DNA of 39,385 bases from positions 25,495 to 64,879 of the forward strand of contig CAYJWU010000002.1 of assembly GCA_964374025.1 (NCBI GenBank), read 5' to 3'. The position numbers and the translations under genes are program-made. Every line of letters starts with the position of its first letter. Position 1 is the stretch's first letter. This document shows positions 933 to 38,052 of the stretch, piece by piece. Source of the DNA: an uncultured Candidatus Saccharibacteria bacterium. GTDB taxonomy: Bacteria > Patescibacteriota > Minisyncoccia > Spechtbacterales > HO2-43-30. Under the pieces are notes generated by a model. The model saw only the letters and a program-made list of their open reading frames with translations, was not told the DNA's origin and ran no database searches.

Positions 933-1009
933 AATGCGAGCCCATTATACACGGAATTCTTTGTCAATACAAGGCGTGATTTGTGGGAGGCGATAAAGAA
1001 CTTGAAATA

Positions 1010-1375
1010 ATGCAGGGAGTTTATTATCATATAAATATGGAGGTTAGAAAAAAGAAAAAAGAAACAACGCTCAATGACTTGGCTTTAATGGTGGGCAAGG
1101 GTTTTGCAGATGTAGACAAACGTTTCGAGCAAGTAGACAAACGTTTCGAGCAAGTAGACAAACGTTTCGAGCAAGTAGACGGGCGCTTCGGAAAGGTAGG
1201 GGGGCGCCTTGATAGAATTGATAATACTCTCGCTCATGTAGATGCGCGACTAGACAGAATAGAAAAAGATATTCAGGAAATAAACAGCTTACTCGTGACT
1301 CGCGATGAATTTGATGATTTAATGGCGCGAGTGAAGTATATGGAGATGAAGTTAGGTATAGAAAGCGGAAAGTGA
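1010..1375 (+). CDS. Hypothetical coiled-coil protein with heptad repeats (FEQVDKR x3, then FEQVDGR, FGKVGGR, LDRIDNT, LDRIEKD)
   Basis: The ORF is 983..1375, and the first in-frame ATG is at 1010. A heptad periodicity is encoded by a 21-bp tandem repeat. A terminator hairpin lies downstream. I recognise no family. Confidence 0.55.
   Translation: MQGVYYHINMEVRKKKKETTLNDLALMVGKGFADVDKRFEQVDKRFEQVDKRFEQVDGRFGKVGGRLDRIDNTLAHVDARLDRIEKDIQEINSLLVTRDEFDDLMARVKYMEMKLGIESGK
1112..1216 (+). repeat. 21-bp tandem repeat GTAGACAAACGTTTCGAGCAA, three perfect copies plus two degenerate copies
   Basis: The perfect copies are at 1112-1132, 1133-1153 and 1154-1174. Diverged copies are at 1175-1195 and 1196-1216. 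All are in frame (7 codons per unit). Confidence 0.9.
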
Positions 1376-1522: not shown

Positions 1523-2941
1523 ATGATTCGAGTTCGAAAATCCATCCTTCTCTCTTCGCTCCCCCCTAGGCCGGGGGTTTATAGTCTAAAAAATGCGCGC
1601 GGAGAGATAATTTACATCGGAAAATCCACGAATATACGCAAACGCGTAGAAACTCACCTTTCCCGCTACGCGGGATCTGGCGTAGCCAGAAAAAATGCAA
1701 CCCCCCTTGCGAGCGAGACGGCGCGGGTTGATTATATTGTTACCGCGAACGAGCCGGAGGCGCTCATAAAAGAATCCGAACTCATCAAAAAATACCAGCC
1801 CCGATACAATATAATGCTTCGCGACGATAAGCAGTATTTTTATGTCTGCTTTACCAACGAAACATTCCCACGCATTGTTGTAACGCACCAGCCACGCGGT
1901 TTGAAAATTGGAAATTGGAAATTGAAAATTCCACCCCGCGGGGTGGCTGGTCCCTTCACCGACGGCAAATCTCTCAAAACAGTTCTAAGGTATTTGCGAA
2001 GGGCATTCCCCTACTATACCCAGACGCACAGAAAACTACCTTGCCAGTATTGCCACATCGGCCTTTGCCCGGGGCCCGATCCGAATACAAAAGGGTATAA
2101 AAAAGACATCGCAAAAATAAAAGCAATATTAAATGGCCGAAAACCGCGCGTCATCACTTCGCTAAAAAAGGAGATGGCACAATTTGCCAAAGGCCTCGAA
2201 TTCGAAAAGGCGGCAAAGTCGCGCGATCAGATTCGGGCGCTTGAAAATATATTCGCACATAACACCCGGGGAGGAAGGTTTTATCCTCTCGCTTTCCTCG
2301 GCCCGCCCAGCGAGCGGGCCTCAGGGTCTCGGCCTTCGCTCCTCCCGACTGCGGTCGGGAGACCATGCCCGCTTCGGCCTCGAAACCCGCGAGAGAATAA
2401 AACCTTCCTCCTAGACCAAGTATCAAGCCTGGAGGCCTACGACATCTCCAATATTCAAGGCAAAGAGCCGGTTGCTTCTATGGTGCGGTTCGATGATGGC
2501 AAGCCGAATAAATCTATGTACAGAAAATTCAAAATTCGGTTTCCGCAAAAGCCAAATGACACCGCAATGATAAGAGAGGTAATACACCGCCGGCTTGCGC
2601 ATCCAGAATGGCCGTATCCCGACGCGTTTCTGATTGATGGCGGAAGAGGCCAGCTGAACGCAGCGCTGCAAGAATTTTCAATTTTTCCCCCTTCGGGGGA
2701 TCTCCCGCAGGGAGACAATTTTTCCCCCTACGGGGGATCTCCCGCAGGGAGACAATTTTCAATTGTTGCTCTGGCAAAAAAGCACAACGAATTATATGTT
2801 CCAAATCGGAAGAAGCCCATACCCCTCAACGCCCTTCCTAAAAACATTCAAAATTTATTCATGCACGCCCGCGACGAAGCTCACAGATTTGCGATATCTT
2901 ATCATAGAAAACTGCACAGAAAAACATCCCTCGGTGTTTGA
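1523..2941 (+). CDS. uvrC: Excinuclease ABC subunit C (UvrC), short form lacking the C-terminal (HhH)2 domain and carrying three in-frame insertions
   Basis: It has a GIY-YIG N-terminus (GVYSLKNARGEIIYIGKSTNIRKRV...YQPRYNIMLRDDKQYFYV). It has a UVR motif (ITSLKKEMAQFAKGLEFEKAAKSRDQIRALENI). It has an RNase H-like endonuclease domain (LEAYDISNIQG...FLIDGGRGQLNAA...IVALAKKHNE). The protein ends right after HARDEAHRFAISYHRK. Confidence 0.85.
   Translation: MIRVRKSILLSSLPPRPGVYSLKNARGEIIYIGKSTNIRKRVETHLSRYAGSGVARKNATPLASETARVDYIVTANEPEALIKESELIKKYQPRYNIMLRDDKQYFYVCFTNETFPRIVVTHQPRGLKIGNWKLKIPPRGVAGPFTDGKSLKTVLRYLRRAFPYYTQTHRKLPCQYCHIGLCPGPDPNTKGYKKDIAKIKAILNGRKPRVITSLKKEMAQFAKGLEFEKAAKSRDQIRALENIFAHNTRGGRFYPLAFLGPPSERASGSRPSLLPTAVGRPCPLRPRNPRENKTFLLDQVSSLEAYDISNIQGKEPVASMVRFDDGKPNKSMYRKFKIRFPQKPNDTAMIREVIHRRLAHPEWPYPDAFLIDGGRGQLNAALQEFSIFPPSGDLPQGDNFSPYGGSPAGRQFSIVALAKKHNELYVPNRKKPIPLNALPKNIQNLFMHARDEAHRFAISYHRKLHRKTSLGV
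1900..1946 (+). repeat. Heptamer array (ATTGRAA x4, containing TTGAAAATT twice) fused to the 16-bp perfect palindrome CCACCCCGCGGGGTGG, in frame in uvrC
   Basis: TTGAAAATT is at 1901-1909 and 1922-1930, and TTGGAAATT is at 1908-1916 and 1915-1923. I verified the palindrome at 1931-1946. The flanking arms CCAGCCACGCGG (1888-1899) and CCGCGGGGTGGCTGG (1936-1950) are imperfectly complementary. The stretch encodes LKIGNWKLKIPPRG. Confidence 0.8.
2270..2411 (+). repeat. 142-bp GC-rich structured insertion with 23-nt terminal inverted repeats, in frame in uvrC
   Basis: GGAGGAAGGTTTTATCCTCTCGC (2270-2292) pairs with GCGAGAGAATAAAACCTTCCTCC (2389-2411) with one mismatch. Internal hairpins are GGCCCGC/GCGGGCC and CTCCCGAC-TGCG-GTCGGGAG. 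It is translated as GGRFYPLAFLGPPSERASGSRPSLLPTAVGRPCPLRPRNPRENKTFLL. Confidence 0.8.
2679..2752 (+). repeat. Two tandem 37-bp copies of a double-hairpin element (CAATTTTTCCCCC-TTCG/TACG-GGGGGATCTCCC-GCAG-GGAGA), in frame in uvrC
   Basis: Unit 1 is 2679-2715 and unit 2 is 2716-2752, and each begins with CAATTTTT. A third related copy is at 35558-35597. Confidence 0.9.
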
Positions 2942-2987
2942 AAATTTGGGAATTGAAAATTGATTGAAAATTGCAAAATTGAAAATT
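2938..2987 (+). repeat. Array of four perfect TTGAAAATT 9-mers immediately after the uvrC stop codon
   Basis: The copies are at 2938-2946, 2953-2961, 2964-2972 and 2979-2987. The same 9-mer occurs in the uvrC-internal array at 1901-1930. Confidence 0.85.
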
Positions 2988-3555: not shown

Positions 3556-5280
3556 TTGGATCTAAATTCTCTTAAACAAATAAAATACCCAAAGTGGTCT
3601 TTACTCTGGCGCGCTTTTTCCAAAAGAGAAAAGTCTATTCTCGTATTTTTAACTTTCCTGATAGTTTCATCTGTTCTAACCCTTGGCGTGCGATTCTACT
3701 ACGCAAGTACCCAAATAGCTCCCGCCCGGGGAGGGACCCATGTTGAATCCGCTCTTGGCATACCGAGGTTCGTAAACCCCGCGTTATCCCAAATAAGCGA
3801 TGTTGACCGCGATATAACGAAGATCGTCTACGCCGGGCTGATGAAATACAACAAAGACGGCAAGCTCCTTACGGACCTCGCGGAAAGCTATAAAATTGAA
3901 AATAATACGCTATACACATTTAAGATCCGCGAGAATATATTCTGGCATGATGGAGAACTTCTGACCGCCGACGATATAGTTTTTACAATAAAACTTATTC
4001 AGGATCCCAAATACGCAAGCCCCATACGCCTAAACTGGCAGGGCGTGGAGGTAGAAAAAATTGATGATTTTACCGTAACTTTCAAACTGGTAAGCCCCTA
4101 TAGCCCATTTTTAGAAAATATGACGCAAGGCATACTTCCCAAGCACATTTGGGGAAATATCGCGCCGAAAAGCTTTCCGCTCGCGGAAGCCAACCTTCAG
4201 CCAATAGGAGCGGGGCCGTATAAATTTGAAAAATTCCAGAAAGACAATACCGGCAACATAAAATCCTACACATTAAAAATAAATGACAAATATTATGGCG
4301 CAGCGCCTCACGTAGAACGCATTGTTTTTAAGTTTTTTGACTCGGAAGACGAGGCGCTCCGGGCGTTAAAAAATCAGGAGGTCAGCGCCATGAGCTTTGT
4401 ATCCGGCTACAACAGCGCAGAAGCAGAAACCGGCGGCAATGTACGGCTTTATACATTCAACTTGCCGAGATACTTCGCCGCGTTCCTAAACCAGTCAAAA
4501 TCCAAAGCGCTTGCGGAGAAACCGGTGAGGGAAGCGCTAACGCTCGCGACGAATAGGGTTGAAATCATAAATCTCGCGGCCGGTGGAAATGGAAAACCTT
4601 CATTCGGCCCGATAGTGCGCGAGCTTCTTGGGTATAACCCTCAAATTGAGGAAAAATATCAATTTAATTTAGACGAGGCAAAAAGGATACTTGCGAGTTC
4701 CAAATGGATTGACACCGATGGCGACGGAGTCCTTCAAAAAACCTTGCCGCAAGATAAGGAGCCTACCTCCCTTGAAATAAATCTTGTTACGGTAGAATGG
4801 CCGGAGCTGGAAAAAGTAATGCGGGTTCTTAAGGAACAATGGGAAAAAATAGGAGCGCGGGTTATAATAAACGCGTACACGCTTGGCGAATTACAGCAAG
4901 AATATATAAGACCCCGAGAATACGAAGCCCTTATTTTTGGGCAGGTTGTGGGCATTGATCCGGATCCGTTCTCGTTCTGGCACTCTTCCCAAAAGAAAGA
5001 TCCGGGGCTAAACCTCGCCTTGTACGACAATAAAACCGCCGATAAACTATTGGAGGAGGCCCGCCAAACCCTGGACTCGCAAGCGCGCGCTGAAAAATAC
5101 GTCCTGTTTCAAAATGCCATAATAAATGATATTCCCGCTATCTTCCTATACAGTCCGACATATCTTTATCCTGTCAATAAAACTATTAAGGGAATCCTCG
5201 AGGGTAAAATCGCGGACCCATCTTTGCGATTTTCCGATATAACAGATTGGTATATTGATACAAAGCGGGTATGGAAATAA
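3556..5280 (+). CDS. ABC transporter substrate-binding protein, family 5 (peptide/nickel type), with an N-terminal TM anchor
   Basis: The 574-aa product apparently starts at a TTG 3 nt after the secG stop. It has an N-terminal TM segment and SBP_bac_5-like blocks (TFKIRENIFWHDGELLTADDIVFT; GAGPYKF; DPDPFSFWHS). Confidence 0.75.
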   Translation: MDLNSLKQIKYPKWSLLWRAFSKREKSILVFLTFLIVSSVLTLGVRFYYASTQIAPARGGTHVESALGIPRFVNPALSQISDVDRDITKIVYAGLMKYNKDGKLLTDLAESYKIENNTLYTFKIRENIFWHDGELLTADDIVFTIKLIQDPKYASPIRLNWQGVEVEKIDDFTVTFKLVSPYSPFLENMTQGILPKHIWGNIAPKSFPLAEANLQPIGAGPYKFEKFQKDNTGNIKSYTLKINDKYYGAAPHVERIVFKFFDSEDEALRALKNQEVSAMSFVSGYNSAEAETGGNVRLYTFNLPRYFAAFLNQSKSKALAEKPVREALTLATNRVEIINLAAGGNGKPSFGPIVRELLGYNPQIEEKYQFNLDEAKRILASSKWIDTDGDGVLQKTLPQDKEPTSLEINLVTVEWPELEKVMRVLKEQWEKIGARVIINAYTLGELQQEYIRPREYEALIFGQVVGIDPDPFSFWHSSQKKDPGLNLALYDNKTADKLLEEARQTLDSQARAEKYVLFQNAIINDIPAIFLYSPTYLYPVNKTIKGILEGKIADPSLRFSDITDWYIDTKRVWK

Positions 5281-22794: not shown

Positions 22795-22917
22795 GGGTAG
22801 AAAATTTCCGCCAAAGGCGGATCAGCCTCTGGATGAAAAAATTAGATATAGAGATATTCTACACGAAAGGTGTAAATCTTGTCAAGGGCCATAATCAACT
22901 CTGTCCCAACACTCACT

Positions 22918-29125: not shown

Positions 29126-29182
29126 GGAAATATTGTAGCACCGTAAGATAAAAAAACAAAATAATAAAAAAGAGGTTATGAA

Positions 29183-29293
29183 TTCGGCGGCTACCTACTT
29201 TCCCAGAAAAAATCTAGTATCATCGGCCTTGGAGTATTTCACTTCTGAGTTCGGAATGGGATCAGGTGGGGCAACTCCAGTATTACCGCCAAA
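29183..29293 (-). rRNA. rrf: 5S rRNA
   Basis: The minus strand reads TTTGGCGGTAATACTGGAGTTGCCCCACCTGATCCCATTCCGAACTCAGAAGTGAAA...GTAGGTAGCCGCCGAA. Helix I pairs end to end. The flanks AGAGGTTAT / ATAACCTCT form a processing stem, and a T-rich tract follows. Confidence 0.9.
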
Positions 29294-29617
29294 TTTATAA
29301 CCTCTTTTTGGAATCTTATAACTCCGTAGGAAAACTTATTATGAGAAATTAGTACTCATAAGCTTAACGCTTTGCAGCGCTTACACTATGAGCCTATCAA
29401 CCTCGTCATCTTCGAGGTCTCTATGAATCCTAATCTTAGGGTAGGCTTCGTGCTTATATGCTTTCAGCGCTTATCCCTTCCGAACATAGCTACCCAGCAA
29501 TGCCGCGGGCGCGACAACTGGTACACCAGAGGTTCGTTCTCCTAGGTCCTCTCGTACTGTAGGAGACTCCCTTCAAGATTCTACGCCTGTGGCAGATAAA
29601 GACCAACCTGTCTCACG

Positions 29618-29905
29618 CATTTGTGGACTATACCACCTTCCCATTTTAAAAATGGGAAGATCGACGTTTTAGCTTTCTGATCTATACAGAAAACTCTAGC
29701 TCTTTTAGCTAAGTCTCTACGGGGTCAATATACGCCTTTTTCGCTTTTTGATATTTCGTAGGCATATACGACTTCCCTCGGTATTATCCTATCATACGAC
29801 AGGTTAAAAAGTCAAGATAGGACTTCACCGATATGAGTCGATTGTTTCAATCACGATTGCTCGTGAAGGCCGCCGTGTGTTCTCGATTTCTTGGGTTCTT
29901 TGTTG
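29618..29905 (-). mobile_element. ORF-less group I-type intron in 23S at E. coli-equivalent position about 2593
   Basis: The exon sequence GGGTTCAAACCGT | CGTGAGACAGG is split by 288 nt. The 5' exon ends in U and the insert ends in G. The upstream exon segment 29906-29998 is 93 nt, matching the E. coli 2501-2593 spacing. Confidence 0.75.
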
Positions 29906-29998
29906 ACGGTTTGAACCCAGCTCGCGTTCCGCTTTAATGTCCGAACAGGACAACCCTTGGGACCTTGTACAGCCCCAGGATGCGAAGAGCCGACATCG

Positions 29999-30858
29999 CT
30001 TGTCGACATTTTCTCTCTTTACAGAGAGGATCGGACTATGTCTTCACCCCGCAAAATCATCAATGACGATCGCGGGGGCCTGCGTATTAACTCTCCTTAG
30101 AAATTATAAAATCGTCAGGAGAATTCCTCTGGTTAAAACCAGAAAGTCTCTACGGGGTTACAACCCAATTTTGTACTCCATGGAAGGAATAATGTTTGCC
30201 TTTAGAAATCTATTAAGGCAATCTACTGATGACTTGAGAAACCTAATGCGGTAATACGATTTATCCCTATTAAGAGTTGCTTCCAGATTCAACTGTTCCA
30301 ATTTGTTGATTAATTTCATCTGGTCTTTCGTTGAGAACTGTTGAGTATTGAGATAAACGTCGTACTGTCGGCATCTGCTCCCATCATCCATAAACCATAC
30401 AAACAGAATCGTTGGATCTAATTTTAGGTCGTCTGGAATAATTTTCTTGCGCCTACGGTAAAACTTTCTATATAATTCGGTCAATTCGGGATGTTGTCTG
30501 GTCCAAAATCTATAAGCCATTCTATTTCCATTGCCTCTATATCTCTTGGGTTCTGAAGCGCAGAGATTTTTTAGCTTCTTAAACTTCCAATCAACATATT
30601 CTTTTGCGCTGTATCCATGGTTAATCTCCAAAAAAGCATTGCTTCTTCCGGGAACGATTCTTAAATAACCGTCACCTAAAATAGACCCTATAATAATAGA
30701 TCTCTGAAATTGAGTTAAACTTCCCACGGTATTGTCCATAAAGTAATTATACCACGAAAAATTGCTGGGCAATCGTAGTTTTACTTATATGGAGTTCACC
30801 GTTATAAGCAGGATTTTTAAATGGCATTACTGCCATAACACCCCGATGTTTGCACATA
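29999..30858 (-). mobile_element. Group I-type intron in 23S at E. coli-equivalent position about 2500, carrying a LAGLIDADG gene
   Basis: The exon sequence GGTTCGACACCT | CGATGTCGGCTC is split by 860 nt. The 5' exon ends in U and the insert ends in G. Confidence 0.8.
30158..30739 (-). CDS. Double-motif LAGLIDADG homing endonuclease (intron-encoded)
   Basis: The two motifs are [11 protein letters not shown] and [10 protein letters not shown]. The ORF is 30158..30772 (TTG), and I prefer the ATG at 30739 (MDNTVGSL). Confidence 0.85.
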
Positions 30859-31437
30859 AGGTGTCGAACCGGGCCGTAGATATGAACTCGCGGGCCCGAC
30901 TAACCTGTTATCCCCGGGGTAACTTTTGGCTGATGATCTTCCCCTTTCCTATAACAAAAAGGGTCGGTTCACTAAGTTACACTTTCGTGAGTCCGCGGCC
31001 AACACGCCTTGGACTAAAGCTGGCTTATGCCTTTACACGACCGCTCCGATTTCCATCCGGAGCTAGCCAACCTTTAAACGCCTCCGCTACTTTTTAGGAG
31101 GTCTAGCGCCCCACTAAAACTACCCGCCTTCCACTGTCTCCCCGCAAACGCGGGGGTTAGAATTATCCTCTTTGAAGATGGGTGTTTCATTGATGACTCC
31201 CCCCAATCCGAGAATCGGGGTTCAAAGTCTCCCCACTACGCTACGCATCAAACAAAATAAACCAATGGAAAGGTATAGTAAAGCTCCCGGGGTCTTTTCG
31301 TCTTGCCACAGGAAAACGGCATCTTTACCGATATTGGATGTTCACCGGGCTCCTCGTTGAGACAGTTACCCAGTCGTTACGCCTTTCGTGCGGGACCCAA
31401 TTTACGGGCCAAGGAACTTCGCTACCTTAGGACTCTT

Positions 31438-32189
31438 CATTTATGTTATTACTGCGTTTTGCAGTAACCCTCACAATGAGGCTCTATGTCTCCATAGAGA
31501 TCGGACCATATCATATACGGTGCGTTTCTTTTCGAAATGACCGTACTCTAGCGTATGGCCTCTGAGGATCCTCTTTAAATGAACGTTCCATATCTTTGAT
31601 GCAATACTTTCTCTTTCTACCCGCTCCCCTATTCAGGCGCTCCCGAATTCTAGCAATTTTTATCAGTTCTTCTTGTGTAATCTGCTCTTTCTCCATCCAC
31701 AACTTCACGGCTTTTCTGAATAGAAAAAAATTGCGTTTTTTTGTTGCCGAACGAAGGCAAAATTGCTCAAAGAAAGGAATCACTATCTCTTTTAAGGCAA
31801 GAGGGTTCAGAACCGCGTAGGTATGCAAACCATCTTGCCGCTGGCTTATGGTTCCGCAACCAAGATATCGCTTGAACTGCGAAAGTATATACCGTTCTCT
31901 CTGAGAGACGCTAAACGCAAACGATATCTGCCATCCCAGCGTGTGATCTTGACGCTTCCTGAAACAAATCACGAAGCTTCCCTCTCCATCCGCAAAACCA
32001 GCGAGATAGTGCCCCCACTCCGGGGGTATGCTTTGTTTGTTCATAATTAGAGTTTCCTGCGGATTGTCCTGCGTTCCCGAAAAACTCGGAAACCGACAAC
32101 GAATTTTTACTGGCAACTTCGTGCCGAGTACCGTTATCTTATCCAGGATATTCCCGCATATAGCTAGATTTTATAACTACAAATAATTC
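31438..32189 (-). mobile_element. Group I-type intron in 23S helix 69 at E. coli-equivalent position about 1917, carrying a LAGLIDADG gene
   Basis: The exon sequence GTCGGCTCTAACTAT | AAGAGTCCTAAGGTAGCG is split by 752 nt. The helix 69 stem GGCUC/GAGUC is restored after removal. The 5' exon ends in U and the insert ends in G. Confidence 0.8.
31511..32044 (-). CDS. Single-motif LAGLIDADG homing endonuclease (I-CreI-like architecture, intron-encoded)
   Basis: The motif is YLAGFADGEGSF. The product is about 177 aa from the ATG at 32044 (MNKQSIPPEW). The ORF extends to 32116. Confidence 0.8.
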   Translation of the reverse strand: MNKQSIPPEWGHYLAGFADGEGSFVICFRKRQDHTLGWQISFAFSVSQRERYILSQFKRYLGCGTISQRQDGLHTYAVLNPLALKEIVIPFFEQFCLRSATKKRNFFLFRKAVKLWMEKEQITQEELIKIARIRERLNRGAGRKRKYCIKDMERSFKEDPQRPYARVRSFRKETHRI

Positions 32190-33556
32190 ATAGTTAGAGC
32201 CGACATTCACCGGCGCTTCTACCATGAGCCGTACAGATTGCTCCACACGACAAACGGCAGTTGACGTTCCGGCATTGGTCAGGCGTCAGCCCCTATACTT
32301 CCTCTTTCGAGTTCGCAGGGACCTGTGTTTTTGTTAAACAGTCGCCAGGCAAACTTTAGCTGCGTCCCGACTTTACGTCGGGAAAGGCATATTGCGAACT
32401 TACGCCTAGCTTTTTTGCCGAGTTCCTTAACGAGGAATCACCCGTTCACCTTGGGCTACTCGCCCTGCCTACCTGTGTCGGTTTGCGGTACGGACTGCAT
32501 ACCCTTAACCCTACGGGCTTTTCTAGGGAGATTTATTGATTACTTCGTCCGATTAAAACCGGACTCAAAGCGAATCCAATAACACTCGTAATCTCCAAAT
32601 CTCCGTCACCCTTCAGAAAGATATGCAGGAGCAGGAATATTAACCTGCTGTCCATCCCCCGACCCCATTCGGGTGTCGAGGTTAGGGCCGCCTAACCCTT
32701 GGCTGATATACATTGCCAAGGAAACCTCAGGCTTTCGGTGGTCCGATATCTCATCGGACTTGCGGTTACTTGTGCCAACATTCTCTCTTCTTTATCCTCC
32801 ACCGTCCCTTACGGGACGACTTCACCGGATAAAGAATGCTCCCCTACCCCCCGACTTTACGTCGGAGTTGTATCTTCGGTATTCGATTTAGCCCCGATAC
32901 ATTTTAGGCGCGAGAACTCTTAACTAGTAAGCTGTTACGCACTTTTTAAAGGATGGCTGCCTCTAAGCCAACCTCCTAGCTGTCAGAGAACTCTCACCTC
33001 CTTTGCCACTTAATCGAAATTTTGGGACCTTAGATTACAATCTGGGCTGTTTCCCTTTCGAGCGTGGAGCTTAGCCCCCACGTTCTAACTTCTAAGAAAC
33101 GCATATTTGGAATTCGGAGTTTGATTGGTCCAAGTTGGAGAATCCTTCTTAAACCATCCAGTGCTCTACCTCCAAACTGCTATCTTAGAGCTAGCCCTAA
33201 AGCTATTTCGGGGAGAACCAGCTATTACCAAGCTCGATTAGCTTTTCACTACTCCCCACAGCTCATCCCATAGTGTTGCATCGCTAACGGGTTCGGGCCT
33301 CCTCCCGGTTTTACCCGGAACTCGCCCTGGCCATGGGTAGCTCGCTTGGCTTCGGGTCTTATTTGCACTACAAAATCGCGCTATTAACACTTGGTTTCCC
33401 TATGGCTCTGTCCCTTACGGGACTTAGCCTGCAATGCAAATAAACTCGTTGGCTCATTCTGCAAAAGGCACGCCGTCACCCCTCGATTTCTCTCGGGGCT
33501 CCGGCTCCTTGTAGGCATATGATTTCAGGTACTATTTCACCGCCCTTACCGGGCTA

Positions 33557-33593
<37 letters not shown>

Positions 33594-34351
33594 ATTACCA
33601 AAAGTATTTAGCCTTGGCAGATAGTCCTGCCTGCTTCCCTCGAAGTCATCGTTCCTCGAGGTACTCAAGAACCCACCAAAAGCTTTCGCATTTAGGCGGG
33701 CCCGCCTGATTGTCTCGCAAAGCGAGACTTTCGGCGGGTAGAAACTAGGAGCATGCAATGTCTTTCGCCTACGGGGCTATTACCCTCTTTGGCTGCCCTT
33801 TCCAGGGACATTTGACTAGACAAATCGCATATTTGTGAACTCCTTCTGGGTTGCCCCAGAGCGTTCCCATCTTACAACCCTCCGACTACTTATTAAAATA
33901 AGAGGTCGAAGTTTAGGCTTTTCCCTTTTCGCTCGCCACTACTGGGGGAATTAAAATTTTTCTATTTTCCTCCGCTTACTGAGATGTTTCACTTCAGCGG
34001 GTTAGGCCTCCGACTTACGTCGGAGTGATGCAGGTTCACTGCATCCCGTTTCCGGATTCGGAGATCCCCGGATCAAAGGTTGCTCGTCACCTCCCCGAGG
34101 CTTATCGCAGACACGCCACGTCCTTCGTCCCCTTTTGGTATCAAGGCATCCACCATACGCCCTTGTAAATAATTGTTTTCCTGCGGAGTTATAAAACTCC
34201 GTTATATTCACTTGTCAAGGTTCTCGCCTTGCGGAAATAAAACAACCGCATCTTTCAGCGGCTGTTTGCATAACTCAAAATATGCAAAACTAACCGCTTT
34301 CTTTAATACGCACTATTCTATTGTTCTCGGTAAATTTTAACACCTGTCCGT

Positions 34352-34443: not shown

Positions 34444-35127
34444 CTACTTGCTGCCTATTTCTTTGGACAGCTTCTCCAGCCAATCCTTTGCAACGCCTTG
34501 CCCACCGAAACCAAACGCAAGCCCGCCCGCGATCGCGAGGAACGCCACAAACCCCATAAATAAGGTATTTATAAGACCGGTAGCAATGCCCAGCTGGTCG
34601 AACACGGCAAGAAACGCGAATACCCATACAGCCCAGCGGACCATAACGCCAAGCATTTTTGGCGCAGTGAATTCCGCGGCCTTTATACTTGCCCTTATTA
34701 TCTTTTCAGAAAAATCAGCGACTACCGCCGCGATAACTAAAATTAATGCCGCTACAAAAATATTTGGGACATACGCGAGTATAGAAGTAAGGAACTTTGC
34801 TACTTCCTGCAGGCCCAAAATGTCCGCGGCAGCCATGAAGAACGCGATTAGCAAAAACCACTTTACAATCCAGCCGACAAAGCCGCTAAACTCCCAATCA
34901 ATACCGGCTTTGTGCGCCGCTTTCATAACGCCAAGCTGATCAAAAATCTTATCGATCTGCGCGGCCGCTAACACCCTTGCGACAAGCTTGCCCAACGCTA
35001 TTGCGACAAGCCACCCCACCGCGAACACAACTATGGCGCCGAAAAGAGAGGGAACAAATCCCACGAACCATTCCCATAAGTTTTGAAGGGAAGCTACGAT
35101 AACATCTGTCCAAGTTTGAACTATCAT
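34444..35127 (-). CDS. Integral membrane protein with conserved TM-helix repeats (mechanosensitive-channel-related family)
   Basis: The ORF opens at 35175 with a TTG, and I prefer the ATG at 35127 (MIVQTWTDVIV). It has repeated amphipathic and TM segments (FVPSLFGAIVVFAVGWLVAIALGKLVARVL; VPNIFVAALILVIAAVVADF). The family call is from memory. Confidence 0.6.
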   Translation of the reverse strand: MIVQTWTDVIVASLQNLWEWFVGFVPSLFGAIVVFAVGWLVAIALGKLVARVLAAAQIDKIFDQLGVMKAAHKAGIDWEFSGFVGWIVKWFLLIAFFMAAADILGLQEVAKFLTSILAYVPNIFVAALILVIAAVVADFSEKIIRASIKAAEFTAPKMLGVMVRWAVWVFAFLAVFDQLGIATGLINTLFMGFVAFLAIAGGLAFGFGGQGVAKDWLEKLSKEIGSK

Positions 35128-35248
35128 ATCAAAAAAACAATTGACGAATAACAACTGGCAATTGACAACGGCCAAAAAGCCAATGGCTATAAGCCAATCA
35201 AGAAACTTTAATATTAATTATGTTAATTGTTAATGTTAACTCTTAATG

Positions 35249-35291
35249 TACCCCGAACTGTGTTTCGCGAAGCGAAACTCTAGTTCGGGGT
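35249..35291. repeat. 43-bp imperfect hairpin repeat, copy A
   Basis: The sequence is TACCCCGAACTGTGTTTCGCGAAGCGAAACTCTAGTTCGGGGT. The outer stem is ACCCCGAACT/AGTTCGGGGT and the inner stem is TTTCGC/GCGAAA. Confidence 0.9.
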
Positions 35292-35408
35292 CAACTATTT
35301 ACTATCGGCCTTTCTTAATATTATACCAGAAGGGGTCAAGAGGTGGGATGTGGATAAGTAAAATGTGGTATGAACCAGAGTTTGCTGGAAGCAAACACGG
35401 TTAATACC

Positions 35409-35451
35409 TACCCCGAACTGTGTTTTGCGAAGCGAAACTCTAGTTCGGGGT
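35409..35451. repeat. 43-bp imperfect hairpin repeat, copy B (one substitution versus copy A)
   Basis: The sequence is TACCCCGAACTGTGTTTTGCGAAGCGAAACTCTAGTTCGGGGT. It lies 19 nt from the tRNA-Ala 3' end. A degenerate inverted relative lies at about 35375-35405 (GAACCAGAGTTTGCTGGAAGCAAACACGGTT). Confidence 0.9.
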
Positions 35452-35469
35452 GGGCCGAGCTAAGCTCGG

Positions 35470-35543
35470 TGGACCTGAGGAGATTCGAACTCCTGACCTT
35501 CGCATTGCAAATGCGGCGCTCTAACCAACTGAGCTACAGGCCC
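35470..35543 (-). tRNA. tRNA-Ala (anticodon UGC)
   Basis: The minus strand reads GGGCCTGTAGCTCAGTTGGTTAGAGCGCCGCATTTGCAATGCGAAGGTCAGGAGTTCGAATCTCCTCAGGTCCA. The G3:U70 identity pair is present, and CC but not the final A is encoded. Confidence 0.9.
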
Positions 35544-35557
35544 ACGTGAATAAAAAT

Positions 35558-35597
35558 ATTGTCTCCCTTCGGGAGATGTCCCGCAGGGACACAAATG
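35558..35597 (-). repeat. Third copy of the double-hairpin element seen in uvrC
   Basis: The transcript-sense (minus) sequence is CATTTGTGTCCC-TGCG-GGGACATCTCCC-GAAG-GGAGACAAT. The uvrC mRNA reads CAATTTTTCCCCC-TTCG-GGGGGATCTCCC-GCAG-GGAGACAAT. Confidence 0.85.
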
Positions 35598-35627
35598 CGG
35601 TGTTCTACCACTAAACTACTGGCCCGC
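35590..35627 (-). pseudogene. tRNA 5'-half-like fragment (acceptor, D arm and anticodon-stem 5' strand, UGU-like loop) with no T arm or 3' acceptor strand
   Basis: The minus strand reads GCGGGCCAGTAGTTTAGTGGTAGAACACCGCATTTGTG and begins at the last base of the sodN stop codon. It resembles the first half of the neighbouring tRNA-Ala and tRNA-Ile. It runs straight into the double-hairpin element. Confidence 0.5.
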
Positions 35628-36073
35628 TATTTTGCCTGAATTTCCATATTCTTTTTCACTGCCTCATAACTGTATCCTTCTTTTGTCTGCTCAAAGACGG
35701 TGCCTATCTCGTCAATTAAATCTATGAGTTTTTGGGCATCCGCTATATCCATTGTTTTTTTAGCTTCACCTGCCGCTTTTGTGGCTTTCCAGAATAAGCC
35801 ATGAAGATTCTCAAACTTTTCGGCGTGTTCGGGCTTGAAATAATCCGTCCAAAGCACCCAAAGGTGATGCTTTACGAGTTCCGCCCGCTCTTCCTTTATG
35901 GCAATGCAGCGCTCGCGCAAAACTTCATCCTCTGTACTCTCATAAATCTTTACGGCGTTGTACACCGACTGCGCTTCTATCCTTGCCTGCGCAGGATCAT
36001 AAACTCCGCACATCAGGTCGCAATGGGCATCGACAGTTTTAATATTAAAAATTTTGTTGATAAATTTCTGCAT
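35627..36073 (-). CDS. sodN: Nickel superoxide dismutase precursor
   Basis: A leader MQKFINKIFNIKTVDA is followed by HCDLMCGVYDPAQARIEAQSV...KEERAELVKHHLWVLWTDYFKPEH. This closely parallels Streptomyces NiSOD (HCDLPCGVYDPAQARIEAESV...LWSDYFKPPH). Confidence 0.85.
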   Translation of the reverse strand: MQKFINKIFNIKTVDAHCDLMCGVYDPAQARIEAQSVYNAVKIYESTEDEVLRERCIAIKEERAELVKHHLWVLWTDYFKPEHAEKFENLHGLFWKATKAAGEAKKTMDIADAQKLIDLIDEIGTVFEQTKEGYSYEAVKKNMEIQAK

Positions 36074-36097
36074 AGATTTGAATTTTAATTATAACGG

Positions 36098-36169
36098 TGG
36101 GCGGCGAAGGGATCGAACCTTCGACCTCGTTCTTATCAGGAACGCGTTCTACCACTGAACTAGCCGCCC
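36098..36169 (-). tRNA. tRNA-Ile (anticodon GAU)
   Basis: The minus strand reads GGGCGGC-TA-GTTC-AGTGGTA-GAAC-G-CGTTC-CTGATAA-GAACG-AGGTC-GAAGG-TTCGATC-CCTTC-GCCGCCC-A, and CC is encoded after the discriminator. Confidence 0.85.
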
Positions 36170-36301
36170 CTATTGTTTCCCCACAATACCCCTTTCCCAC
36201 CCCAAAATCAAGCCGCATACCAATGCGACAGCTGCAATCGCGGTAATAAAAAGTGCCTGCCGTTTCTTAAATTATACAACAATTACAAAATCGGCGCGAA
36301 A

Positions 36302-36351
36302 CAATTATAGTATACAAATACTCACGATCGTGAGTATTTGTATACTATAAT
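36302..36351. repeat. 50-bp perfect palindrome centred on CACGATCGTG, abutting the stop codon of the PaaX-like gene
   Basis: The sequence is AATTATAGTATACAAATACTCACGATCGTGAGTATTTGTATACTATAATT, with 25 of 25 pairs verified. The inner 34 bp are identical to 37026-37059. Confidence 0.95.
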
Positions 36352-36995
36352 TAATATTTCATTCCTTTATCCAATAAGCTAAGGTGCCGCCGCAGTAGAA
36401 CACCCTCTCGCAAAAAGTATCTGCGCAAAATCCTATCATTGTCTATTTTTGCCGCAAACATCATTGTATATGGCGTGATACCCAAAAATTCGCACACATA
36501 CCGCAGTTCTCTCTCGCATTCAAACGGATAGATCCATACACTTTTTTGAAATTGGAAAAACCCCAAATTTTTTAGTTTTGATCTCAAAACATCTCGGAGG
36601 CTTCTCCGCTTTTCCGGAACATCAAAAAGGAAAAATCGCCACTGCCCATCCCACTTGTCCTTTTTGATAACAGTTATATCATCTAACTTAGCTTTCCCGA
36701 AAACCTTTTGACCCTTTGGGGTCAATTCAATTCTTGCAACATTTTCTTTCTTATCAAACCTCCACCTGACATAGTGATTTCGCTTCAGCTTATAAATACT
36801 CTGCCGTACCTGCTCGGCGTCACTTTCTGGGGGTACATATGGGCCGCCCTCCTCCCACCACTTTTTAACATAGTATCGGACAAGGGCGATTACCACCTTA
36901 CTCCCCATGGGAGAAAGTATCACTGCTCCGCCCACCAACCCAAACAAAATCGCTTTCTCTATAGAATTTTTATTAAGTATCATTCTTGCTGGCAT
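36351..36995 (-). CDS. PaaX-like / Cas2-fold domain protein (putative DNA-binding regulator)
   Basis: WDGQWRFFLFDVPEKRRSLRDVLRSKLKNLGFFQFQKSVWIYPFECERE matches the PaaX_C/Cas2-like beta-alpha-beta signature. I prefer the ATG at 36995 (MPARMILNK), because the longer ORF to 37238 reads through the upstream palindrome. Confidence 0.65.
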   Translation of the reverse strand: MPARMILNKNSIEKAILFGLVGGAVILSPMGSKVVIALVRYYVKKWWEEGGPYVPPESDAEQVRQSIYKLKRNHYVRWRFDKKENVARIELTPKGQKVFGKAKLDDITVIKKDKWDGQWRFFLFDVPEKRRSLRDVLRSKLKNLGFFQFQKSVWIYPFECERELRYVCEFLGITPYTMMFAAKIDNDRILRRYFLREGVLLRRHLSLLDKGMKY

Positions 36996-37025
36996 ATAAA
37001 CAATACTACCATACCAAACTATTCT

Positions 37026-37059
37026 TATACAAATACTCACGATCGTGAGTATTTGTATA
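37026..37059. promoter_or_regulatory. 34-bp perfect palindrome (candidate operator) 31 nt upstream of the PaaX-like start
   Basis: The sequence is TATACAAATACTCACGATCGTGAGTATTTGTATA, with 17 of 17 pairs verified. Confidence 0.6.
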
Positions 37060-37134
37060 TTGATATGGAAACAAAAAATCCTAAGAGGAATCGTATGGAA
37101 AATCATACGGAAAACCTTAGGATTTATTCCTAAA

Positions 37135-38052
37135 TCAGTAGCCCTTCCATATCGGGGGCACGGGGTAACTTTCTCCAAACATCTCTGCGGGAAGTGTGCC
37201 CCCGTACGCGAGCAGACTTTCGCCAAACTCGAACGCATGATAATTAAACTGCGCAGTTCTCAAAGTTTCGAATCCTCGCCTCATCGCACTTCTATGCTGT
37301 GGGTGATACCGAAGTATCTCCCAAATTTGGCAATTGAGGATAATGGGCAAGAACGGGGAGAATGAGGGATAAGTCAAGAATATATCGGCCTGTTCTTCCA
37401 CGGCCGCTCGGGGCACAAATCCCCCAAATCCAATGCACAAATCGACAACTGGCTTTGTTTCAAGTTCGGAAACGGAATCCCCAACGATAGCAACCGGCCC
37501 CCAAATTCCGTTTGAGGCTCTAAACTTTTCGATTACCTTACGTTTTCCTCCGTCGCGCGATAAGGGATTGCTCTCGTCAAAGCCCGCATATCGGCCTCTC
37601 CGGAAGAAAAGTTCGTTGGCGTATACGTCGCCTTCTGATATCCCAACATACTCGGCAAGCGGTAAAATTGCCTCGCGATAACCCCCGGTTATCAAACAGA
37701 CGTTTACACCTAAATCCTGCAATGCTTGTATCGTTTCTTTTGCATCTGGTGCGAGATTTTCAATGTACAATCGCGAAATCCTTCCAAGATCCCGATGCCT
37801 GGGCCGTATAATCTCCAAGCGTCTTCCAAATACTTCCTCAAGTGCGATCTCGCCGTCCATTGCTCTTTTTGTAAGCTCCGCGACTTCCGTTTTTTTGCCG
37901 CTTATACGGGCAAGCTCGTTTATTCCCTCTATTCCGCAAAGGCAGCTGTCTACATCTATAAAAAGATGCTGATAATCATAGGCCCTAACTTGTCGGCACA
38001 GCACATCAAAGTCACCTTCGTCGCATCGCTCGCAAACTGCGTGCATACCCAT
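37135..38052 (-). CDS. HAD-superfamily hydrolase, phosphoserine-phosphatase-like (subfamily IB) with a C-terminal extension
   Basis: Motif I is LFIDVDSCL. It has a cap-domain helix pair and motif III/IV-like GDSVSE. An AGGAG lies 9 nt upstream of the ATG. Confidence 0.65.
   Translation of the reverse strand: MGMHAVCERCDEGDFDVLCRQVRAYDYQHLFIDVDSCLCGIEGINELARISGKKTEVAELTKRAMDGEIALEEVFGRRLEIIRPRHRDLGRISRLYIENLAPDAKETIQALQDLGVNVCLITGGYREAILPLAEYVGISEGDVYANELFFRRGRYAGFDESNPLSRDGGKRKVIEKFRASNGIWGPVAIVGDSVSELETKPVVDLCIGFGGFVPRAAVEEQADIFLTYPSFSPFLPIILNCQIWEILRYHPQHRSAMRRGFETLRTAQFNYHAFEFGESLLAYGGTLPAEMFGESYPVPPIWKGY

Follow-up and report, generated by a model that had tools for sequence, protein, structure and literature searches.

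In a 39,385-nucleotide (nt) stretch of DNA from an uncultured Candidatus Saccharibacteria bacterium (the window; contig CAYJWU010000002.1 of assembly GCA_964374025.1), the gene uvrC carries three copies of a 30-nt double hairpin, and a fourth copy splits the anticodon loop of a tRNA-Ala-like fragment. We propose that this repeat, here called the element, is a site-specific, selfish insertion element that acts at the level of DNA and belongs to a large family of the candidate phyla radiation (CPR, Patescibacteria), a reading to which we assign a probability of roughly 0.7 to 0.8. The element is added as an exact 30-bp block at TTN^CAA sites (^, insertion point), without target duplication where these lie in tRNA genes. 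Its stems stay complementary while their sequence varies, and it is widespread in CPR genomes and tolerated in frame in proteins. We infer that it is, or was, mobile as DNA. An insertion element together with a candidate GIY-YIG nuclease is probably the best explanation overall; the link to this nuclease as the mobilising enzyme is itself a tentative one.

Each unit consists of two abutting hairpins with a 6-bp stem and a 3-nt loop apiece, and across the family the first loop reads T-N-C and the second G-N-A. The consensus is a 15-nt hairpin, T-S-N-C-C-C / T-N-C / G-G-G-N-S-A, followed by its inverted copy with the loop G-N-A. Owing to this inversion, the consensus is dyad-symmetric and reads alike on both strands; the arrangement is a head-to-head dimer with zero spacing and the ends T...A. 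A structure-only scan for two abutting, perfect, G+C-rich 6-bp stems with 3-nt loops returned four double hairpins in the window against 0.0 expected, three in uvrC and one at 35562 (Table 1). The repeat was matched in none of 100 shuffles, and a chance origin is rejected on these shuffles and on the complementarity of stem positions left free in the search. At gathering thresholds, Rfam matched only rRNAs and tRNAs in the window and no family covers the element, which excludes a known RNA family.

A first-pass annotation of the window had described a 40-nt unit with UNCG tetraloops, present as two tandem in-frame copies in uvrC and once more, in the same orientation relative to transcription, in the rRNA spacer. 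The repeat is real, with tandem copies in uvrC and a related copy elsewhere, and the tandem copies are indeed in frame, as a 37-nt repeat at 2679–2759 (2.2 copies, 97% match) inside a 472-amino-acid (aa) open reading frame (ORF). The unit, however, is 30 and not 40 nt long: each tandem unit is CAATTTT plus the 30-nt core, the period of 37 being 30 + 7. Nor are there tetraloops. The sequence reads CCCCC-TTC-GGGGG (or C5-TAC-G5), the annotated transcript having held one extra G per hairpin, and at minimum energy the tandem cores fold into a pair of 6-bp stems, set end to end and each capped by a triloop (-18.7 kcal/mol, z about -3). Single units are likewise more stable than shuffles (z about -3 to -4.8). 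The common orientation also falls away: either strand of the third copy matches the architecture without a mismatch, and the copy aligns to the uvrC copies at 78% identity directly and 81% inverted, so that its orientation to transcription is undefined. Two further copies had escaped the annotation, an in-frame one in uvrC (E3, 1661–1690) and a degenerate intergenic one at 22807–22836, which has perfect relatives at locus L112 (TCCGCC-AGA-GGCGGA / TCCGCC-TCT-GGCGGA).

Table 1. Copies of the element and associated features in the window. ^, insertion point; pLDDT, predicted local distance difference test score.
Feature	Position	Strand	Sequence and context
uvrC ORF, 472 aa	1523..2941	+	Host of three copies of the element; Pfam GIY-YIG, UVR, UvrC_RNaseH_dom
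E3	1661..1690		uvrC, in frame; TCCCGC-TAC-GCGGGA / TCTGGC-GTA-GCCAGA; flanks CTT^AAA; from structure-only scan; product SRYAGSGVAR, residues 47-56; fold -17.9 kcal/mol, z -3.9; pLDDT <50 at 49-58
TTGAAAA heptamer array	1901..1930	+	Reverse complement of TTTTCAA; in uvrC, without the element; potential target sites
Heptamers GAATTTT, CAATTTT	2672..2685	+	Directly 5' of E1; T-rich side of target
E1	2686..2715		uvrC; TCCCCC-TTC-GGGGGA / TCTCCC-GCA-GGGAGA; starts at codon position 3; encodes (F)PPSGDLPQGD
CAATTTT heptamer	2716..2722	+	Between E1 and E2
E2	2723..2752		uvrC; TCCCCC-TAC-GGGGGA / TCTCCC-GCA-GGGAGA; starts at codon position 1; encodes SPYGGSPAGR
CAATTTT heptamer	2753..2759	+	3' of E2, then CAATTG
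TTGAAAA heptamer array	2938..2987	+	From last uvrC bases (stop 2939-2941) downstream; without the element
Degenerate copy, second subfamily	22807..22836		TCCGCC-AAA-GGCGGA / TCAGCC-TCT-GGATGA; 1 stem mismatch; intergenic, upstream of rpoB; flanks ATT^AAA
Intact tRNA-Ala(UGC)	35468..35543	-	Starts a few bases past the 16-nt spacer (CAATATTTTTATTCAC) following E4
E4	35562..35591		+ strand reads TCTCCC-TTC-GGGAGA / TGTCCC-GCA-GGGACA; perfectly palindromic TTG^CAA site
tRNA-Ala(UGC)-like 5' fragment, 36 nt	35592..35627	-	Acceptor, D arm, anticodon stem and loop to TTTG; cut off by E4

How far does this element extend beyond a single contig? In one genome per species, the pattern T..CCC...GGG..AT..CCC...GGG..ACAA was found at no fewer than 118 loci, where about 4 matches would be expected by chance (our own estimate, for uniform base composition). 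A metagenome scan for the subtype seen in the window, without any flank requirement, gave at least 120 loci, and the figures below for these genome and metagenome sets are counted among the matches listed, at least 118 and at least 120 loci, respectively (individual loci carry the prefix L). Hosts in the genome set are mostly Parcubacteria, Saccharibacteria-labelled, Berkelbacteria and other CPR metagenome-assembled genomes (MAGs). A single match turned up in 2.9 million viral contigs, and an origin from phage was rejected. Further copies are thus abundant and tandem copies recur in independent assemblies (L063, L157, L172); none of the outcomes that the annotation had named as refuting its idea came about.

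The compensatory stem differences that the annotation had noticed between copies hold across the family. We tested 106 distinct cores, 11 of which came from a scan that itself demanded pairing, so that the unbiased evidence lies in the free positions of the remaining 95. The eight stem positions left free in the genome pattern are Watson-Crick paired in 117–120 of 127 copies, each with 2–3 pair types. Under the two-hairpin model 98.4% of stem cells in the 106 cores pair, double-sided stem changes number 140 against 31 +/- 4 in shuffled alignments, and the covariation score is 0.324 against 0.066 shuffled and at most 0.10 in slid-partner controls. A single long hairpin, as which individual sequences can still fold, is not conserved across the family; it was rejected on the variable positions, which fail to pair across the two halves. 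Other subfamilies carry the stems TCTCGC/GCGAGA, TCCCGC/GCGGGA, TCAGGC/GCCTGA, and TCCGCC with AGA/TCT loops. Copies within one locus are nearly identical (L041, L034, L025, L063, L070). Half elements, that is single 15-nt hairpins, and extra double hairpins in D loops also occur beside full copies (L034 at about 5190–5204, L122 at about 1390–1420, L124 at about 1300–1315), examples of half elements being TCCGCC-CAA-GGCGGA in a tRNA D loop and TCTCCC-TAC-GGGAGA in a uvrC linker; the family may thus be built from the 15-nt hairpin as its unit.

Insertion follows a DNA target. The flank-free metagenome sample gives the logo AATTTN^E^CAAWTT (E, element), in which T occupies -2 in 94 of 109 copies and A occupies +3 in as many, while C stands at +1 in 72 and A at +2 in 103, and all five copies in the window match TTN^(C/A)AA. 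The metagenome set has 100 copies with 450 nt or more of sequence to either side; 54 of them are enclosed by an ORF of 150 aa or more, at codon offsets of 33/10/11 and, by stem order, 35 in sense and 19 in antisense; the genome set adds 40 coding copies in all three offsets. Arrays of TTGAAAA/TTTTCAA-like heptamers or octamers are common in these genomes, coding regions included (L041, L061, L086, L089), and the element often stands exactly at the boundaries of their units. In the window, the array at 1901..1930 encodes GLKIGNWKLKIPP, common to the UvrC orthologues P0002 and P0003. Such arrays may be target sites, traces of several rounds of insertion and loss, or products of slippage.

Transfer RNA genes are a second frequent setting. 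A tRNA gene was called within 150 nt of 27 of the 129 copies in the genome set, and 15 of 131 occupy the 7-nt loop of a 5-bp flanking stem (3.3 expected), typical sites being TT^CAAAT in the T loop and CTG^CAAA in the anticodon loop. Deletion of the element in silico restores a complete tRNA in just 2 of 308 double hairpins; the others lie in fragments beside an intact copy, and a tRNA intron was rejected on this count. The two exceptions are the anticodon loop of a Glu/Lys-like tRNA (L042, 7338–7367) and the T loop of a tRNA-Ser(CGA) (L047, 2694–2723), genes that may have been inactivated recently or may need removal of the insert.

The tRNA remnants lead to a candidate enzyme. Small GIY-YIG ORFs of 80–95 aa, located with a hidden Markov model (Pfam PF01541), are present at 14 of the 118 genome loci, in 9 of these within 20 nt of the element, and 8 metagenome loci have such a gene within 150 nt. 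Their layout recurs (L003, L045, L085, L088, L093, L116, L041, L034, L112): the 5' part of a tRNA-Cys or tRNA-Glu gene with the element in its anticodon loop, between CTG^CAAA or TTTT^CAA, then a few bases, the GIY-YIG ORF and an intact copy of the same tRNA. The start codon lies 3–14 nt downstream of the element, and the last GIY-YIG codons overlap the start of the next tRNA. At L045 and L003 nothing but the 30-bp element distinguishes the remnant from the intact tRNA as far as the loop; insertion was therefore exact and without target duplication. Since these cassettes had been chosen for containing the element, we sampled four further loci through the protein, and 4 of 4 had a double hairpin, often with other stems, in the anticodon loop of an upstream tRNA-Cys remnant. 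Every small GIY-YIG/tRNA cassette examined thus carries the element at this position. Conversely, when all ORFs within 1 kb of the element were clustered at 238 loci, GIY-YIG alone recurred as a neighbour family, at 16 loci and a median distance of 23 nt. Nothing resembling a transposase family recurred within the same 1 kb at these loci, and another associated nuclease or transposase was rejected on the same clustering. The protein, about 83 aa in length, consists of the catalytic domain only and lacks a DNA-binding domain; its nearest relatives, also among solved structures, are UPF0213 proteins and the nuclease domain of the structure-specific endonuclease Slx1. Tandem cassettes at L119 (1142–1755) and L121 (1069–1749), in a conserved infB-rbfA-tRNA-Cys neighbourhood, have two ORFs, each following its own tRNA-Cys remnant and double hairpin, which suggests repeated invasion of one site. 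Arrays of tRNA remnants beside an intact copy (L112, L041, L034) similarly look like repeated invasions.

The window holds the same layout at tRNA-Ala, without an ORF. The annotation had placed its third copy in the rRNA spacer; the copy at 35562–35591 exists, its site being the anticodon loop of a tRNA-Ala-like 5' fragment. Read along the minus strand, tRNA-Ile is followed by sodN, the fragment ending in ...CCGCATTTG, E4, CAATATTTTTATTCAC and intact tRNA-Ala; E4 therefore splits an anticodon loop, TTTG^CAAT. The fragment resembles a tRNA 5' half, receives no tRNA call from ARAGORN, and shares its anticodon arm, CCGCATTTG, with the intact tRNA-Ala, its uninterrupted counterpart. The sodN gene, which encodes a nickel superoxide dismutase (Pfam Sod_Ni, E 2e-38; 35627–36073, minus strand) and lies between tRNA-Ile and tRNA-Ala in the 16S–23S region, has a stop codon overlapping the first base of the fragment, just as GIY-YIG ORFs overlap tRNA starts in the cassettes.

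What do the copies do to a protein? The ORF at 1523..2941 is identified as uvrC by its GIY-YIG, UVR and UvrC RNase H domains. As the repeat period is 37, E1 and E2 are read in different frames (FPPSGDLPQGDN versus SPYGGSPAGR). The two cores and three CAATTTT heptamers form an insert of 81 nt, that is, 27 codons more than in short-linker orthologues: the linker from DGGRGQLNAAL to (V)VALAKR has 7–13 residues in many orthologues and 27 more in the window. Residues 47–56 are likewise extra, orthologues being shorter there, and the three copies together enlarge UvrC by 10 + 27 residues, all in variable linkers. The nearest orthologues are Spechtbacteria-like (55–64% identity, 402–445 aa), and in the alignment close orthologues do without the encoded segments, while element-like peptides appear in some at the same or other variable sites (PTGHLPKGD in P0008; SPAGRP...PPAGDLPKGD in P0033). 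Catalytic motifs downstream of the segments are conserved. In the AlphaFold model pLDDT falls below 50 at residues 49–58 and 392–408, the latter between a confident helix (375–387) and a confident strand (413–418); the segments are therefore predicted loops at tolerant positions. A recent change at the linker site is evident from P0008 and P0243, two members of one 90%-identity UvrC cluster: clustered hairpins (TCTCCCTACGGGAGA and, in addition, a full core) fill part of the linker DNA of P0008 and are missing from that of P0243, and the flanking DNA is nearly identical.

uvrC also contains a different, larger palindromic insertion-like segment, 142 nt in frame at 2270–2411, whose ends are 23-nt inverted repeats (96% complementary) and whose interior holds G+C-rich hairpins. 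It encodes residues about 249–296 (pLDDT <50), parts of the peptide being common to P0004 and P0006; a second copy was not found among the loci compared. Upstream of uvrC, the ORF at 983..1375 includes a perfect 21-nt tandem repeat (1112–1180, 3.3 copies) that encodes VDKRFEQ repeats.

We suggest the following course of events. The element would spread in trans, catalysed by a nuclease whose cue is not a fixed sequence but the extruded hairpin or cruciform, and the candidate for this role would be the 80–95-aa GIY-YIG protein. Solitary copies such as those of uvrC might be non-autonomous members, and the copy at 35562 might be an ORF-less version of the cassette arrangement at tRNA-Ala. Within genes the element is tolerated because its 30 nt amount to ten codons that are almost always stop-free, and the Ser/Pro/Gly-rich loops that it encodes would fall at tolerant surface positions. 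A bolder version holds that the element and a minimal Slx1-like GIY-YIG protein form an unrecognised bacterial mobile system, in which the nuclease acts on the extruded double hairpin, spreads the ten-codon block through CPR genomes, and time and again invades and rebuilds tRNA genes by way of cassettes that bring a replacement 5' half, with no need of splicing; this we consider possible but doubtful.

Several established systems resemble the element in part. Rickettsia palindromic elements (RPEs) are likewise palindromic repeats found in frame in unrelated genes of reduced-genome bacteria, at positions compatible with the fold (PMC10969869). They measure about 100–150 bp, have a family-specific conserved peptide and bear a CGTC end tag (PMC10969869, PMC3733652), whereas the element measures 30 bp, occurs in all frames and on both strands without a CGTC tag, is spread over many CPR lineages and is tied to GIY-YIG/tRNA cassettes. 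Repetitive extragenic palindromic (REP) sequences and their composites (bacterial interspersed mosaic elements and REP doublets forming hairpins, BIMEs and REPINs) are 20–40-bp G+C-rich palindromes with variable complementary stems, often arranged as inverted dimers 1–5 bp apart; they lie outside genes, carry GTAG or CGTC at one end, and their movement is ascribed to a dedicated nuclease acting in trans, an HUH tyrosine transposase (PMC3733652). The element, too, is an inverted dimer, of two 15-nt hairpins. It differs in being often intragenic, in its T...A ends at TTN^CAA, in the zero spacing of its hairpins and in having GIY-YIG as sole recurrent neighbour; GTAG occurs in it only when the second loop is GTA, in about 30% of copies. 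A miniature inverted-repeat transposable element, which has terminal inverted repeats around a body of 50–500 bp, was rejected: the element has no such body within its 30 bp. Target duplication is absent at tRNA sites for which the uninterrupted sequence is known, and most of its 7-nt flanking repeats lie in arrays. Arrays of tandem interspaced guide RNAs (TIGR) share a 36–37-nt period, stem-loop variants and an occurrence in CPR, but comprise two 8–12-nt variable spacers and box C/D motifs in long arrays beside a Nop-domain Tas gene (PMC12045711). The element is dispersed, mostly solitary and often in genes, its variable positions are covarying stem pairs and it has no such neighbour gene; a TIGR array was rejected on these grounds.

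Outside bacteria, the double-hairpin elements of Allomyces mitochondria and the GC clusters of yeast are short G+C-rich elements with two stem-loops in compact A+T-rich genomes. They occupy intergenic DNA and variable regions of rRNA, sometimes stand in frame (var1), and are found alongside mobile endonuclease ORFs, of which some bring a duplicated end of the gene they invade and so restore it. They are organellar, vary from 26 to 79 bp and are probably unrelated to the element in sequence, and we know of no fixed 30-bp dyad-symmetric unit reported among them; the likeness is one of architecture only, namely two adjacent G+C-rich stem-loops in dispersed copies. Free-standing GIY-YIG homing cassettes (phage T4 seg/mob, I-TevI) also place a nuclease gene in or beside a conserved gene and spread by cutting cognate alleles. 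In CPR the protein is about 83 aa long and lacks a DNA-binding domain, the host gene is restored through a duplicated tRNA 5' half and not through splicing, and a double hairpin always marks the remnant. Failing the defining features of RPEs, REPs and mitochondrial elements, the element is filed under none of them; in its workings it would come closest to a REP dimer that can also enter genes. A literature search found no description of it in CPR, in agreement with the annotation, which knew of no such family, and a survey of CPR rRNA insertions reports short uncharacterised inserts and sparse GIY-YIG ORFs without mention of it. We rate it as a small palindromic selfish repeat that is unusual in size, habitat and partner.

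Some observations sit uneasily with a mobile DNA element of CPR. The CAA side lies downstream on the sense strand in 32 coding copies and upstream in 7, which dyad symmetry does not predict; composition was rejected as the cause (ratio of T.CAA to TTG.A in sense strands, 0.86), and the bias hints at a strand-specific step. Direct repeats of 7 nt flank 29 of 111 copies where 4.8 are expected, and could betray a duplication-generating transposase for part of the family. Of the 29, 22 belong to longer CAANNNN heptamer arrays, which are more probably runs of target sites than target duplications. The window lacks a small GIY-YIG gene, and at only about 7–12% of loci is one nearby; the link could thus be one-directional, cassettes needing the element and the element perhaps not needing cassettes. 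Among the hosts listed are labels outside CPR (Methanoregula, Methanosarcinales, Pirellulales, Methylomirabilis, 'uncultured Gammaproteobacteria'), and such contigs could be mis-binned CPR or real spread beyond it; loci labelled in this way with a genuine-looking element are L007, L014, L016, L023, L024, L046, L049, L058, L064, L077 and L080. Finally, no clean 30-bp indel was found in the 90%-identity UvrC clusters, whose sole informative pair, P0008 and P0243, is complex, and neither an excision product nor a clean pair of empty and filled sites within one population was seen.

Could the double hairpin instead be selected in transcripts, as a functional RNA motif for processing, stability or termination whose orientation follows transcription? 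The annotation had favoured RNA structure over peptide, and as far as the peptide goes this agrees with the covarying stems and with tandem copies in different frames; a transcript-sense RNA structure with UNCG loops finds no support. Strong covariation, the stable folding of single units, the position of the element just before the GIY-YIG start codon and the coding-strand bias (32:7 by flank, 35:19 by stem order) speak for an RNA. We nevertheless hold it to be very unlikely, given triloops in place of UNCG, a consensus that is the same on both strands, 35% of coding copies in antisense by stem order, and placement that follows a DNA target motif and not gene ends, at arbitrary internal ORF positions, in all frames and in dead tRNA fragments, with no Rfam match. 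Covariation is equally expected of DNA hairpins recognised by a nuclease, as in REPs. Occurrence on both strands, in all frames, between genes and in dead tRNA loops, at a shared target motif, makes the features fit a DNA insertion element better. The proposal that the peptide is what is selected, a Ser/Pro/Gly decapeptide linker favoured at the protein level, can point to an excess of codon offset 0 (SPxGGSPxGR), which 33 of 54 coding copies show. Against it, copies are read in all three frames and on both strands, the tandem uvrC copies differ in frame, about half of all copies are non-coding and stems covary where the peptide changes, all of which makes this scarcely credible.

Two alternatives leave the element in the realm of DNA. 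It might be a REP-like sequence moved by an unseen HUH transposase (of the RAYT, that is REP-associated tyrosine transposase, or IS200/IS605 type), with the hairpin pair 3' of a short single-stranded target. A 30-nt inverted dimer of G+C-rich hairpins does recall closely spaced REP dimers (PMC3733652), insertion is sequence-specific and without duplication at tRNA sites, and the 32:7 bias could reflect a replication-strand preference. The missing GTAG/CGTC end tag, the intragenic position of about half the copies (54 of 100 testable), GIY-YIG as the only family that recurs within 1 kb at the 238 loci, with nothing transposase-like, and hairpins that differ on any one strand (TNC versus GNA loops), unlike IS608-type ends, render it quite unlikely in our view. 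Alternatively, the element may be immobile itself, a by-product or integral end of the homing of cassettes, or of the repair of breaks made at TTN^CAA, with solitary copies as scars of nuclease cuts into which repair had copied it from elsewhere. Its presence in the remnant anticodon loop of every cassette examined, protein-sampled ones included, would fit, as would the single shared site motif and the near-identical copies within five loci (L041, L034, L025, L063, L070). About 90% of copies are far from any cassette, however, and unrelated flanks offer no homology for templated repair; we think this unlikely. It overlaps with the insertion-element reading and differs from it only in whether the 30 bp are cut and pasted or copied into breaks.

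The region around the tRNA-Ala copy has other peculiarities. The rRNA operon (34444–38052 and 29182–34176, minus strand) is heavily interrupted by ORFs, with HAD-hydrolase and PaaX-like ones in the interval from 16S to tRNA-Ile and an MscS-like one in that from tRNA-Ala to 23S. The 23S match is 3381 nt long where the model has 2925 nt, and 5S is about 1.5 kb away. LAGLIDADG-like motifs appear in two ORFs, one within the 23S span (31511..32116) and one just past its 3' end (30158..30772). A perfect 34-nt palindrome, TATACAAATACTCACGATCGTGAGTATTTGTATA, stands on either side of the PaaX-like ORF (36311–36344 and 37026–37059), and its 22-nt core occurs also just upstream of uvrC (1457–1478). On the 23S side of tRNA-Ala are two 43-nt hairpin-forming repeats, 98% identical (35249–35291 and 35409–35451; TACCCCGAACT...AGTTCGGGGT).

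If the element is what we propose, one 30-bp selfish sequence would lie behind many of the short, lineage-specific insertions that hamper alignment and annotation of CPR proteins, and also behind broken assemblies and fragmented tRNA loci of CPR MAGs. A covariance model of the element could mask such insertions and flag interrupted tRNA fragments during annotation. The double-hairpin elements and GC clusters of mitochondria would gain a counterpart in bacteria. The pairing of the element, in cassettes, with a GIY-YIG protein reduced to the catalytic domain suggests a testable partnership of nuclease and element, parallel to that of REP and RAYT and built on another enzyme fold. Were the two indeed to form a mobile system, it would have seeded Ser/Pro/Gly loops in a large share of CPR proteins.

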